4,145 bases of DNA from Naegleria gruberi. Its lineage: Eukaryota. The DNA is taken from NCBI GenBank assembly GCA_000004985.1, contig GG739196.1; one strand, given 5' to 3'. Positions 1 to 4,145 of the stretch are shown in pieces; the stretch's first letter is position 1, and every line of letters begins with the position of its first letter. Under the pieces are notes generated by a model, which saw only the letters and a list, made by a program, of their open reading frames with translations, had not been told where the DNA came from and did no database searches. The position numbers and the translations under genes are program-made.

Positions 1-299
1 GAGAATCATTTACTTATTGCGAGAGTGCTCACCAATTAAGGATTGTGGTATTGGCTTTTAAGGAAGATCGTTCTACAACTTTCAATACCATCTCTCTTGA
101 CTGTATTATATTGTTGAATACTGGACAAGAGAGAATGACCAGAAAATGGACAAAAGGAATATGAACTCTTTCATAAATTGAGGAATCGTCTTTGAGAGAT
201 GAGGATCTATCTTATGTAATCCTGCATATAATTCCACAATGATTTTGGGTTTAAACTACATCAAGGTTTTAAAAAGGCAAAGAATAAGCAAGAGGCCTT

Positions 300-516
300 T
301 TTCTTTTTACCAATATATTTAAAAGACATTCACGATCTTGGTGCAAGATATTTTAAGGATAATTGAAAAAAATTGTAAAAGTTTCCTGTAACGGATTTAA
401 TCTATTAATAATTTCAAAAAAAATACCACAACGTATACTTACTCCTTCACTACTGTGGATTTATCTAATAAATAACGTTTTTTCATAATACTACTATCGC
501 AAACATTTAATCTAAA
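300..516 (+). promoter_or_regulatory. Putative promoter/5' leader of the 517-1221 gene (AT-rich, TATA-like tatatttaaaa at 314-324, oligo-A tracts)
   Basis: The only support is position upstream of the ORF, AT richness, a TATATTTAAAA element and A7-A8 runs at 367-373 and 415-422. No transcript data. Confidence 0.15.
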
Positions 517-1221
517 ATGATGAAACCAAGCCATTCTAACAATCAACCTGCTACTACTCCGCAATTTCTAAATGACATTCTCAAGCAATTAACCAACAAG
601 TCATCAAACAAAAATTCCTTTCCCGTTGCTCCCTCTTCAATTGTGTCGAATAACAATACAGCCACACCTTCGAATAATAGACAGGCAAGGTACTCGTCTT
701 CCAAGAATAACAATAGAAAATCAAACAATAATGTAAATAACGGACACAGAAAGAAACGAAACATTCAAAAGCCAATTAAAATCATTCAATCGAGAAGTTG
801 GTTTGGCAGTGAAGACGATTGGCTGCAGGGAAATGTTGTTCCTGTTCAAAGTCCAAGTTTCTTGTTGTTCAATCAAACTGATTCATCAGTTTTAAAACAA
901 GATTCGAATAATAAACAGAGTGTCGTTTCTGCTTTTGATTTCTTCAAGATTCAAAGGAAGGAAAGTATTGCTGAACTCTCTCAAAACAACAACTCCTCTC
1001 TTAAAACAATCATTGCCAATACAGATCAATCAGTGTGTCCAATCTGTGAAGAAGATTTGGATAAATCATACGATTCTCAGAGAATGAATTGGGTTTTGAG
1101 TGAGGCAGAGTTTTCACCTTCTCTGCAATTATATGTCCACTCAAATTGTTCCAATTCAAAGAAGAGAAAAGTTATTCCAAATCATTCATCAGTCGAAACT
1201 TTGAAAAAGGTGAAAATTTGA
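517..1221 (+). CDS. Hypothetical Asn/Ser/Thr-rich low-complexity protein, probably nuclear, with a possible C2HC-type zinc-binding motif; no family recognised
   Basis: Uninterrupted 234-codon ORF from ATG at 517 (A-rich context ctaaaATGatg) to TGA at 1219-1221. The N-terminal half is poly-N/S/T low complexity (NNNTATPSNN, SSSKNNNRKSNNNVNN). Basic patches GHRKKRNIQKPIK and SKKRKVIP resemble monopartite NLSs. The C-terminal region has C-P-I-C (about 1035-1046), then about 33 aa, then H-S-N-C (about 1138-1149). The only antisense ORFs are short and low-complexity. Confidence 0.55.
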   Translation: MMKPSHSNNQPATTPQFLNDILKQLTNKSSNKNSFPVAPSSIVSNNNTATPSNNRQARYSSSKNNNRKSNNNVNNGHRKKRNIQKPIKIIQSRSWFGSEDDWLQGNVVPVQSPSFLLFNQTDSSVLKQDSNNKQSVVSAFDFFKIQRKESIAELSQNNNSSLKTIIANTDQSVCPICEEDLDKSYDSQRMNWVLSEAEFSPSLQLYVHSNCSNSKKRKVIPNHSSVETLKKVKI

Positions 1222-1247: not shown

Positions 1248-1260
1248 ACCCGCTCATTTT
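1248..1260 (+). repeat. Left terminal inverted repeat ACCCGCTCATTTT
   Basis: Exact 13-bp reverse-complement match to 3476-3488. Similarity stops immediately outside (1247 t versus the complement of 3489, a). Confidence 0.5.
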
Positions 1261-1460
1261 TGTTGACGCTTGTTTTGACGATTTTATAGTCATGAATGAC
1301 GCCTTTGTTTATGCTTGTTAAGGTGTCATTGGGACGGTGTTGTGGACGTCAAAATGACGTTTTTTTTCGTCATTTTGACGGTGTCAATTTGGGAGTCATT
1401 AAGACGTCACAAAAAGCGTCCTCAATGACGTCTCAAAGTGTGTCTCCAATGACGTTACAG
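1261..1460 (+). repeat. Subterminal repeat region: about 12 copies of TGACG / (A)ATGACG(T) / GACGTC (ACGT core) in both orientations, with internal direct repeats
   Basis: ttgacgc (1263), ttgacga (1275), atgacgc, gggacgg, ggacgtc, aatgacgt, ttcgtcat, ttgacgg, agacgtcac, agcgtcc, atgacgtc, atgacgtt. Direct repeat pair GcGTCcTCAATGACGTc (about 1413-1431) / GtGTCtcCAATGACGTt (about 1439-1456). Second pair GGTGTCAtTGGGAcG (1322-1337) / GGTGTCAatTTGGGAg (1380-1396). Confidence 0.55.
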
Positions 1461-1540
1461 AATGATCATTAATTTTTGATAAATTGAAATTTTATTGAAC
1501 TATTCATAATTCTTACAAGTCGAAAATCTTTCATCTTGAA

Positions 1541-1613
1541 CCATTTCACATTGAGTTAAACCCAATGCTGTGATTTCACACTGTGTGAATTAGCATTGTA
1601 AAAGATTTCACAC
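1541..1613. repeat. ATTTCACA(C) direct repeats with a perfect 15-bp palindrome and flanking inverted arms, abutting the gap
   Basis: GATTTCACAC at 1572-1581 and again at 1604-1613; a related atttcacat at 1543-1551. TTCACACtGTGTGAA at 1575-1589 is a perfect palindrome. Outer arms CAATGCT (1563-1569) and AGCATTG (1592-1598) are inverted repeats. The gap begins directly after the second GATTTCACAC copy. Confidence 0.6.
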
Positions 1614-2816
1614 NNNNNNNNNNNNNNNNNNNNNNNNNNNNNNNNNNNNNNNNNNNNNNNNNNNNNNNNNNNNNNNNNNNNNNNNNNNNNNNNNNNNNNN
1701 NNNNNNNNNNNNNNNNNNNNNNNNNNNNNNNNNNNNNNNNNNNNNNNNNNNNNNNNNNNNNNNNNNNNNNNNNNNNNNNNNNNNNNNNNNNNNNNNNNNN
1801 NNNNNNNNNNNNNNNNNNNNNNNNNNNNNNNNNNNNNNNNNNNNNNNNNNNNNNNNNNNNNNNNNNNNNNNNNNNNNNNNNNNNNNNNNNNNNNNNNNNN
1901 NNNNNNNNNNNNNNNNNNNNNNNNNNNNNNNNNNNNNNNNNNNNNNNNNNNNNNNNNNNNNNNNNNNNNNNNNNNNNNNNNNNNNNNNNNNNNNNNNNNN
2001 NNNNNNNNNNNNNNNNNNNNNNNNNNNNNNNNNNNNNNNNNNNNNNNNNNNNNNNNNNNNNNNNNNNNNNNNNNNNNNNNNNNNNNNNNNNNNNNNNNNN
2101 NNNNNNNNNNNNNNNNNNNNNNNNNNNNNNNNNNNNNNNNNNNNNNNNNNNNNNNNNNNNNNNNNNNNNNNNNNNNNNNNNNNNNNNNNNNNNNNNNNNN
2201 NNNNNNNNNNNNNNNNNNNNNNNNNNNNNNNNNNNNNNNNNNNNNNNNNNNNNNNNNNNNNNNNNNNNNNNNNNNNNNNNNNNNNNNNNNNNNNNNNNNN
2301 NNNNNNNNNNNNNNNNNNNNNNNNNNNNNNNNNNNNNNNNNNNNNNNNNNNNNNNNNNNNNNNNNNNNNNNNNNNNNNNNNNNNNNNNNNNNNNNNNNNN
2401 NNNNNNNNNNNNNNNNNNNNNNNNNNNNNNNNNNNNNNNNNNNNNNNNNNNNNNNNNNNNNNNNNNNNNNNNNNNNNNNNNNNNNNNNNNNNNNNNNNNN
2501 NNNNNNNNNNNNNNNNNNNNNNNNNNNNNNNNNNNNNNNNNNNNNNNNNNNNNNNNNNNNNNNNNNNNNNNNNNNNNNNNNNNNNNNNNNNNNNNNNNNN
2601 NNNNNNNNNNNNNNNNNNNNNNNNNNNNNNNNNNNNNNNNNNNNNNNNNNNNNNNNNNNNNNNNNNNNNNNNNNNNNNNNNNNNNNNNNNNNNNNNNNNN
2701 NNNNNNNNNNNNNNNNNNNNNNNNNNNNNNNNNNNNNNNNNNNNNNNNNNNNNNNNNNNNNNNNNNNNNNNNNNNNNNNNNNNNNNNNNNNNNNNNNNNN
2801 NNNNNNNNNNNNNNNN
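1614..2816. other. Assembly/scaffold gap (1203 N)
   Basis: Unbroken run of n from 1614 to 2816. Any ORF called across it is an artefact. Confidence 0.98.
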
Positions 2817-3101
2817 ATGTATAGACCAGAAATTGGTATCTTTGGTGCCTTGTCCTATGTTGCCATCAATGCTGAATAAGACAAGTTCCTTTCTATTGTC
2901 TTTGTCAAGCTTGGCTCCATTGGTTCCCCAGCCACAATGACTAGAACTGTGCAAGCTGCTGAAGCTATTGCTCTCTACGGCTTGTTGTTGTTCCAATTCC
3001 AATTCTGATGTATTACCATATCTTCTGATAGCTTGTGTAGGTTCATTCATAGTCTTGTTGAAAAGGTAACCAGTACCACTACCGTAAATGGTATTATTCA
3101 A
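2817..3101 (-). CDS. Element-internal ORF fragment, N-terminal 95 codons visible, continuing into the gap; unknown function, candidate transposase or element accessory protein
   Basis: The minus strand is open for 95 codons from 3101 to the gap edge: LNNTIYGSGTGYLFNKTMNEPTQAIRRYGNTSELELEQQQAVESNSFSSLHSSSHCGWGTNGAKLDKDNRKELVLFSIDGNIGQGTKDTNFWSIH. All three plus-strand frames stop within about 120 nt (2817 frame: MYRPEIGIFGALSYVAINAE*). The start is unclear. The ORF-track M at 3101-3099 is TTG. An in-frame TGA sits at 3119-3117 and the first in-frame ATG at 3050-3048. An ATG at 3129-3127 opens a +1 frame (MSILTMSRGIE*, stop at 3096-3094), suggesting an intron, a frameshift or a decayed copy. 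The ORF-track label + for 1608..3101 is wrong; the translation is of the minus strand. Confidence 0.4.
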
Positions 3102-3315
3102 TTCCTCTAGACATTGTCAAAATGCTCATTGGTAAAGTGACTAAAAAACAGTGCTTGGAATCCTGTATGAGAACTGTAGAAAGTTCTTTGAAGCAGGGGA
3201 TAAAGAAAGTGATTGGAAGGCAGTTGATGAAGATGTTAAGCTTTATTTTTTAAATTATTTTCAAAAATATTCACAAGTCTGAAATACGTCACCTCCTCCT
3301 TCACTGATTTTCATC

Positions 3316-3392
3316 ATCAAAACAACACAAAACAAACAACAACAAATAAACAACACATTACAACATCAAGTAGAACACAACAGAATATCGAT
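3316..3392. repeat. CA/ACAA-rich low-complexity tract (TTGT-rich on the minus strand)
   Basis: caaaacaacacaaaacaaacaacaacaaataaacaacacattacaacatcaagtagaacacaacagaa. It is essentially G/T-free on the plus strand and lies between the right subterminal repeats and the internal ORF. Confidence 0.6.
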
Positions 3393-3419
3393 AATTAACT
3401 TTGGAGTAACTTTATGCAA

Positions 3420-3475
3420 AAACGTCAGTGATGACGTCAAAAAAAGCGTCAATCCACCATCAGGAATGACGAAAT
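3420..3475 (-). repeat. Subterminal repeat region at the opposite end (ACGTCA, ATGACGTCA, AGCGTCAA, AATGACGAA)
   Basis: aacgtcagtgatgacgtcaaaaaaagcgtcaat...ggaatgacgaaat lies immediately inside the right TIR. It includes the perfect CRE-like palindrome TGACGTCA at 3432-3439 and the conserved 18-bp block 3435-3452 shared with 1263-1280. Confidence 0.5.
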
Positions 3476-3488
3476 AAAATGAGCGGGT
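3476..3488 (-). repeat. Right terminal inverted repeat (reverse complement ACCCGCTCATTTT)
   Basis: Exact 13-bp inverted match to 1248-1260. Confidence 0.5.
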
Positions 3489-3545
3489 TGTACATCAATT
3501 AAATAAAATCCTTAATTTACTATTAAATCACATCATCTTATTTTT

Positions 3546-4145
3546 CTAATTCCTAGAGTCAATCAACTTGTTAACCATTCTATCAAATGTTTTGTAAAAG
3601 TCCGCAACATCCACAGTCAAGTAATCTCCCAAACTGTCCTTTCTCAAATTCTTTGGATTTGAATTACTCCACAATGTATAGTCATTTCCCTTCCAAAATG
3701 TGAATTGTTCAAAGCATCTCCATCCTCTTGTTGTTACTGTATTCCAAATTTCAAGAACTGCAGAGGTTTCCTCAGGCATCCACAATGAGTGAGTCAATCC
3801 AGCTCCATGATATCCAATTAAAAAATCTGAATCGTGAACTTTTTGAATTTGTTCAACTAATTTCAAATGTGCAAAATCAACTCTTTCCACTGTGAATTTC
3901 TTGCCATATTCTCTGTGAGTCTTCATTCGATCCAACACCTCTTCTTCATTGCTAATTTGACGAGACATGAAATTGTGCTCGACTCCAAATTTCACATAAG
4001 GTCTTCGACTGATGAACAAGACACGAATCACATCACCCTTATTGATTTCTCTCTTCTTGATACCCAAACCATTCAAAATTCTATTGGCAAAATTGGCAAC
4101 GAGTGGAATTTTTGAGTGACACATAGTAGCATCATTCTCATTAAA
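3546..4145 (-). CDS. Glycosyltransferase family 61 (DUF563; EOGT-like or beta-1,2-xylosyltransferase-like), C-terminal catalytic portion, 5'-partial
   Basis: Minus-strand ORF with stop TAG at 3546-3548 (plus-strand cta). Translation contains DFLIGYHGAGLTHSLWMPEETSAVLEIW; HGAGLTH plus a downstream hydrophobic/acidic segment is the conserved GT61/EOGT core motif. Upstream of it lie VIRVLFISRR and NEEEVLDRMK, matching the family pattern of a basic stretch followed by a helper helix. The ORF-track Met at 4124 is not necessarily the start: the 21 nt upstream (4125-4145, minus frame FNENDAT) have no in-frame stop, so the frame is open to the window edge. Full GT61 proteins are much longer than 192 aa. 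Confidence 0.85.
   Translation of the reverse strand, partial: FNENDATMCHSKIPLVANFANRILNGLGIKKREINKGDVIRVLFISRRPYVKFGVEHNFMSRQISNEEEVLDRMKTHREYGKKFTVERVDFAHLKLVEQIQKVHDSDFLIGYHGAGLTHSLWMPEETSAVLEIWNTVTTRGWRCFEQFTFWKGNDYTLWSNSNPKNLRKDSLGDYLTVDVADFYKTFDRMVNKLIDSRN

Follow-up and report, generated by a model that had tools for sequence, protein, structure and literature searches.

The piggyBac element of Trichoplusia ni (IFP2) is a 2.4-kb transposon whose ends carry 13-bp terminal and 19-bp subterminal repeats separated by spacers of 3 and 31 bp (PMC2532691), and PiggyBac and CMC elements have been reported from Naegleria lovaniensis (PMC6125883). Rolling-circle elements of the Helitron2/Helentron type (HLE2) have terminal inverted repeats of 12-16 nt, insert at T^T and leave no target duplication (PMC4067079; PMC11417382). 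For Naegleria, a literature search for transposon catalogues returned mentions at superfamily level only. Here we describe a segment (positions 1248-3488) of Naegleria gruberi NEG-M that lies between two convergent genes, is bounded by terminal inverted repeats (TIRs) and carries arrays of a short motif inside both ends. The window analyzed is an entire scaffold of 4145 bp, built from two contigs (1-1613 and 2817-4145) that are linked by 1203 N. We give an even chance to the reading that the segment is a TIR-type (cut-and-paste) DNA transposon, or the immobilised remnant of one, in a convergent spacer of about 83 bp.

The structure of the two ends carries most of the evidence. An earlier sequence-only reading of the window had reported a perfect 13-bp inverted repeat (ACCCGCTCATTTT), a second block conserved at 17 of 18 positions with a 21-bp displacement, and unrelated sequence outside the repeats, and all three observations were recovered. 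The 13-mer is present at the proposed coordinates, has no further occurrence in the window even with up to two mismatches, and does not extend outward; if the outer A is counted as flank, the TIR is 12 bp long and the terminus reads 5'-(A)CCCGCTCATTTT. The 18-bp block, which contains two TGACG units spaced 12 bp apart, is separated from the left TIR by 2 bp and from the right TIR by 23 bp, which gives the 21-bp offset. Gapped alignment of 1248-1320 with the reverse complement of 3407-3488 showed that the similarity of the ends reaches further inward than had been seen before, covering about 75-80 nt and starting at the first base of both ends. The order of elements in this alignment is the 13-mer, an indel, the 18-bp block, a second indel, GTCATGAATGAC/GTCATCACTGAC and then GTTTATGC/GTTTTTGC. 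The alignment, for which the ends were picked after the repeat had been seen, scored 49 against 29.5 +/- 6.2 for shuffled sequence, a value reached in 3 of 500 shuffles. The composite end structure is above chance and non-random as a whole, and to this extent the architecture of a DNA transposon claimed previously is borne out, the missing parts being a target-site duplication and a transposase match.

The motif TGACG, best written WWTGACGY, occurs 17 times in the window against 3.0 +/- 1.7 expected (5.6-fold), a count that none of 200 shuffles reached. All copies except one fall within 1264-1454 and 3287-3471 (16/17), and none occurs in the remaining non-coding DNA of the window (1-516). The arrays are about 200 bp long on the left and about 55 bp on the right, and both clusters start no more than 25 bp from the 13-bp repeats; a rough estimate for a chance repeat falling beside both of them, 0.11 x (25/1600) x (25/1316), is about 3e-5. 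The clusters had been described as facing inward at both ends. Their existence is clear from these counts, but a uniform orientation is not found: the ratio of forward to reverse motifs is 7:3 at the left end and 2:4 at the right, and several motifs are palindromic sites of the TGACGTCA type. The motif also makes up strong local hairpins and the 24-bp tandem units at 1403-1459 (Table 1). The region 1248-1390, which includes a perfect hairpin, folds with -23.7 kcal/mol (z = -5.2).

The ratio of observed to expected CpG is 1.46 and 1.47 in the two ends (1248-1460 and 3401-3488), compared with 0.2-0.65 in the flanking genes and the internal open reading frame (ORF), and nearly all CpGs of the ends fall within TGACG motifs.

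Both flanking genes converge upon the segment, as had been proposed. The left one encodes a protein with weak Pcf11 / PCFS4 zinc-finger matches in a Pfam search, and its stop codon lies 26 bp ahead of the left TIR. On the right, the ORF at 3546-4124 (-) is 100% identical to EFC35483, a Glyco_transf_61 protein according to the same type of search, and its stop codon lies 57 bp past the right TIR. With the segment taken out, 26 + 57 = 83 bp would be left between the two stop codons. Convergent spacers in two related contigs measure 85 bp (contig L013, at a Pcf11-like gene, 51% identity) and 150 bp (contig L011, at a GT61 gene, 49%). The neighbours in L013 and L011 differ from those of the N. gruberi locus, and neither contig is therefore an empty site. 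In L013 (heterolobosean, Logan SRR7467761), the Pcf11-like gene is faced by a convergent gene for a histidine-rich orphan of 359 amino acids (1549-2628, -) instead of GT61, so that synteny of the locus is lost at that distance. This contig lacks the TIR 12-mer and is not enriched in TGACG. We favor a TIR transposon because the inverted similarity begins at the outer boundary on each side, because one motif is arrayed inside both ends, including the side 3' of the internal gene, an unexpected place for a promoter, and because an internal gene is present in a spacer that is otherwise of normal size.

A single N. gruberi scaffold of 243,952 bp carries twins of both flanking genes side by side. 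NAEGRDRAFT_74092 is the twin of the GT61 gene (199 of 199 residues identical) and NAEGRDRAFT_74093 that of the Pcf11-like gene (96% identity, with nine substitutions and a 2-amino-acid indel); both their locus numbers and their UniProt accessions (D2VYE5/D2VYE6) are consecutive. It follows that the window is another copy of this locus, partly diverged. NEG-M is said in the N. gruberi genome paper to be a heterozygous strain, and the window is probably the other haplotype, possibly the one bearing the insertion. With the left gene at 96% and the right gene at 199/199, divergence between the two copies is mosaic, possibly owing to gene conversion or to one-sided loss of heterozygosity. The right flank is identical in protein to its twin, yet it was assembled as a separate scaffold, and the annotated N. 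gruberi proteins include none that resembles the internal ORF, which fits a main-scaffold locus lacking the segment. Together these two observations suggest, short of proof, that the 244-kb scaffold is free of it. The insertion would then probably be present on one haplotype only, and the segment is most likely a low-copy element in a small alternative-haplotype scaffold.

The internal ORF, open into the assembly gap, is the sole long open frame in the readable part of the segment. Of the six frames it has the top codon score, and its first codon positions are rich in purines, as in both flanking genes; it is probably a real coding sequence. Beyond the gap, the minus-strand frames are closed within 18 codons; the gene would therefore encode at most about 500 amino acids, if the gap estimate is right. 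A search of IMG/VR at the translated-nucleotide level (tblastn type) with the internal ORF gave no match, and none of eight small ORFs of the element had an exact counterpart in a collection of 15 billion proteins. The AlphaFold single-sequence model of the fragment was unusable (predicted local distance difference test, pLDDT, 33).

Table 1 Coordinates of the putative element, its repeats and its surroundings in the 4145-bp window.
Feature	Position	Strand or orientation	Remarks
Left terminal inverted repeat, ACCCGCTCATTTT	1248-1260	+	perfect reverse complement of 3476-3488
Right terminal inverted repeat	3476-3488	-	perfect match to left repeat
Left subterminal 18-bp block, TTGACGCTTGTTTTGACG, two TGACG units spaced 12 bp	1263-1280	+	17/18 (94%) complementary to 3435-3452
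Right subterminal 18-bp block	3435-3452	-	partner of 1263-1280
Gapped inverted similarity, left end	1248-1320	+	aligns to 3488-3407
Gapped inverted similarity, right end	3407-3488	-	aligns to 1248-1320
Left cluster, 10 WWTGACGY motifs	1264-1454	7 forward, 3 reverse	CpG observed/expected 1.46
Right cluster, 5 TGACG motifs	3423-3471	2 forward, 3 reverse	CpG observed/expected 1.47
Sixth right-end TGACG motif	3287-3291	reverse	
Perfect hairpin CGTCAAAATGACG-T8-CGTCATTTTGACG, 13-bp stem, four motifs	1347-1380		
24-bp unit GACGTCACAAAAAGCGTCCCCAAT, 2.4 tandem copies	1403-1459	+	third copy, direct orientation, 3433-3456
Internal ORF, N-terminal 98 codons, open into gap	2817-3110	-	first ATG 3050-3048
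Assembly gap	1614-2816		1203 N; inside segment; body of internal gene falls here
Left flanking host gene, Pcf11-like zinc-finger protein, 234 amino acids (NAEGRDRAFT_54890 / EFC35482)	517-1221	+	ORF
Right flanking host gene, C-terminal part of GT61/EOGT-like glycosyltransferase (NAEGRDRAFT_54891 / EFC35483)	3546-4145	-	ORF

If the segment is a transposon, its transposase would bind the WWTGACGY repeats as a multimer, bring the two ends together and cut at the terminal CCC/GGG. The transposase would perhaps be the product of the internal gene, the body of which falls within the gap. A more specific version, to which we attach little probability, is that the segment represents a family restricted to Heterolobosea that makes no target duplication, is characterized by palindromic WWTGACGY arrays and a CCCGCTCATTTT terminus, and depends for its movement on an orphan internal protein without similarity to known transposase superfamilies.

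Several results weigh against a transposon at this locus. The boundaries of the segment are sound as coordinates, but 1203 of its 2241 bases are gap, so that the 2.24 kb given previously is an estimated length, and the ends are on separate contigs. Taken by itself, the 13-bp repeat does not exceed chance, since 57 of 500 Markov shuffles (11%) produced a perfect inverted repeat of 13 bp or more between the two contigs. Haplotype divergence alone could also account for the separate scaffold, given the 4% protein difference in the left gene. For the internal ORF fragment, there is no homologue among 5.8 billion protein sequences and no match, to a transposase or otherwise, in Pfam, PHROGs or the PDB. 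Compared with 1.84 billion representatives, it gave only four matches, none credible; these (FG-GAP, BspA-LRR and similar) were rejected as spurious because they are repeat proteins with summed weak stretches. The N. gruberi proteome contains no paralogue of the ORF either, and there is thus no sign of a multi-copy autonomous family.

The boundaries also bear no target-site duplication. None of 2, 3, 4 or 8 bp exists at the proposed termini, where the sequence-only reading had pointed to such lengths, and no longer one was seen. The 2-bp flanks are TA and TT, and the 4-bp flanks, TTTA and TTGT, are both different from TTAA. The 8-bp flanks are CTCCTTTT (left) and TGTACATC (right) when counted from ACCC, or TCCTTTTA and TTGTACAT when counted from CCC. 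The closest approach to a duplication is TTA (1246-1248) and TTG (3488-3490), alike at two of three positions. TTAA-bounded ends farther out were rejected as well, since the added bases are not inverted repeats.

The alternative is a non-mobile arrangement, in which the segment is a lineage-specific orphan host gene, the TGACG(T) clusters are regulatory sites of the cAMP response element/basic leucine zipper (CRE/bZIP) type, and the 13-bp repeat is a coincidence or part of a palindromic regulatory sequence. We regard this explanation as unlikely, although it is the most probable of the rivals. The frequency of 13-bp repeats in shuffled sequence and the occurrence of another pair in the same window are in its favor, as are the many palindromic, TGACGTCA-like motifs of the kind bound by dimeric transcription factors. 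The codon usage of the ORF is host-like, the ORF lacks paralogues, a target-site duplication is missing, and the right cluster occupies a promoter position about 320-420 bp upstream of the ORF. An orphan gene does not, however, explain why 75-80 nt of inverted similarity begin exactly at both outer boundaries, or why the larger of the clusters is located 3' of the ORF and faces the 3' end of the convergent gene. Regulatory sites of this type would likewise leave unexplained the absence of TGACG from non-coding 1-516 and its lack of enrichment in L013, and an excision that gives back a spacer of typical length (83 bp) fits a mobile element better.

The other pair in the window is a second perfect 13-bp inverted repeat, TTCATCAGTCGAA / TTCGACTGATGAA, situated at 1185-1197 and 4004-4016 inside both flanking coding regions, and it demonstrates that perfect inverted repeats of this length do arise by chance here.

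A non-autonomous rolling-circle element of the HLE2 type is improbable. Such elements were not among the candidates of the sequence-only reading. The segment shares with Helitron2/Helentron and DINE-1/HINE elements its 13-bp (sub)terminal repeats, T-rich flanks (the flanking bases are T1247 and T3489, and the left flank ends in TTTT), the lack of a duplication, and internal simple repeats in the form of a microsatellite-like tract and repeated units, as known from DINE-1/HINE (PMC4067079; PMC11417382). In DNA as AT-rich as this, however, chance alone would place T residues on both sides in about 12-15% of cases, and the stem-loop that defines such elements is absent outside the repeats: folds of 3489-3548 and 1200-1262 (z = +0.2 and -0.5) are no better than shuffles, and hairpins are located inside the repeats instead. 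The 75-nt gapped inverted similarity with binding-site arrays at both ends is atypical of the group, and no RepHel sequence is present in the readable part. Finally, an assembly artefact, produced by joining two contigs of different loci, or a chimeric clone, across a repeat, would account for the mismatched flanks and for two repeats that lie on different contigs bridged only by the 1203-N gap, but it is very improbable because both flanks map to adjacent genes with consecutive identifiers on the same 244-kb scaffold, and each junction between flank and repeat is within contiguous sequence.

Further repeats were noted around and within the segment. A perfect 10-bp palindrome, AAATTAATTT, is found at 1227-1236 in the 26-bp stretch separating the stop codon of the Pcf11-like gene from the left repeat, and its fold is not significant. 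The microsatellite-like tract is of the CAAAACAACA type (3318-3365, five copies, 75% match) and lies between the right cluster and the internal ORF, upstream of the latter. Just ahead of the gap and 3' of the internal ORF, (A/G)TTTCACA(C/T) occurs three times in 1540-1613, once as ATTTCACAT and twice as GATTTCACAC, at intervals of about 30 bp. Rfam and tRNA scans of the window returned nothing above noise.

Searches for other copies of the ends used the TIR together with the 18-bp block as a pattern. Prokaryote genomes and IMG/VR gave no match, and the JGI metagenomes gave one, the count expected by chance. This single match (contig L012, 11424-11465) lies inside a bacterial gene for a LytTR-type response regulator and is a chance match. 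In a separate observation, an unrelated metagenome peptide of 54 amino acids (P0005, contigs L001-L010) shares a 90% cluster with the N. gruberi GT61 proteins, an apparent oddity of database clustering.

Confirmed as a DNA transposon, the segment would be a haplotype-specific insertion, hence probably a recent one, in a protist genome that is gene-dense and has only about 5% repeats. Ends resembling those of piggyBac without TTAA targeting would moreover be relevant to the coupling between end architecture and the choice of target. Should the segment instead turn out to be a fixed orphan gene, or a family already catalogued in Repbase, its interest would be that of routine annotation only. Overall, we consider the locus moderately interesting for transposon annotation in Heterolobosea, the kind of element being no surprise.

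Compared with described superfamilies, several can be set aside on their termini, their duplication or their size. Tc1/mariner was rejected because TA is present on the left only and the right flank is TT, as the sequence-only reading had noted. CACTA was rejected on termini or duplication, the termini of the segment not being CACTA, and Kolobok, which has a TTAA duplication and RR/YY termini, was likewise rejected on termini or duplication. A DIRS-like element has the wrong size and the inverted repeats here are too short for it, and cargo of the Fanzor/IS607 type was rejected for want of homology. Elements of the hAT (Ac-type), P and CACTA groups resemble the segment in having short TIRs and asymmetric subterminal regions of 50-250 bp that are dense in a short CpG-containing motif in both orientations; the subterminal motif of Ac is AAACGG. 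Assignment to hAT was rejected, as there is no 8-bp duplication (CTCCTTTT vs TGTACATC) and the terminus is ACCCG, not YARNG, and the readable part contains no BED or hAT-dimerisation sequence.

PIF/Harbinger offers the best footprint of the families compared. The flanks TTA and TTG, read earlier as an imperfect pair, are indeed that, with one mismatch, and the segment shares with this superfamily a short TIR with a G/C-rich start followed by a T-rich stretch. Subterminal binding-site repeats are plausible in PIF/Harbinger for a Myb-like partner protein. The segment differs in its imperfect duplication, in having space for one ORF (at most about 500 amino acids) instead of the usual two, and in showing no DDE_Tnp_4 or Myb-like sequence in its readable part.

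The arrangement of the ends is closest to piggyBac, which had been dismissed on the grounds that TTAA flanks are missing. Their absence is confirmed by the flanks TTTA|CCC and GGG|TTGT, whereas the layout of 13-bp terminal repeats, an 18-bp subterminal repeat and asymmetric spacers matches the published ends. Both have 5'-CCC...GGG-3' termini; both combine a 13-bp terminal with an 18- or 19-bp asymmetric subterminal repeat, at spacers of 2 and 23 bp here and 3 and 31 bp in piggyBac; and both are about 2.2-2.4 kb in size (an estimate across the gap in the present case), with space for a single ORF. In contrast to piggyBac, the end with the short spacer lies 3' of the ORF rather than 5', additional TGACG motif arrays are present, and the 98 readable residues have no DDE_Tnp_1_7 match. 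The N-termini of piggyBac transposases are not conserved. Because the defining TTAA is absent, we do not file the segment under piggyBac. On the letters of this locus, then, no single superfamily fits: the end layout appears piggyBac-like, and the only near-matching footprint, TTA/TTG, appears PIF/Harbinger-like.

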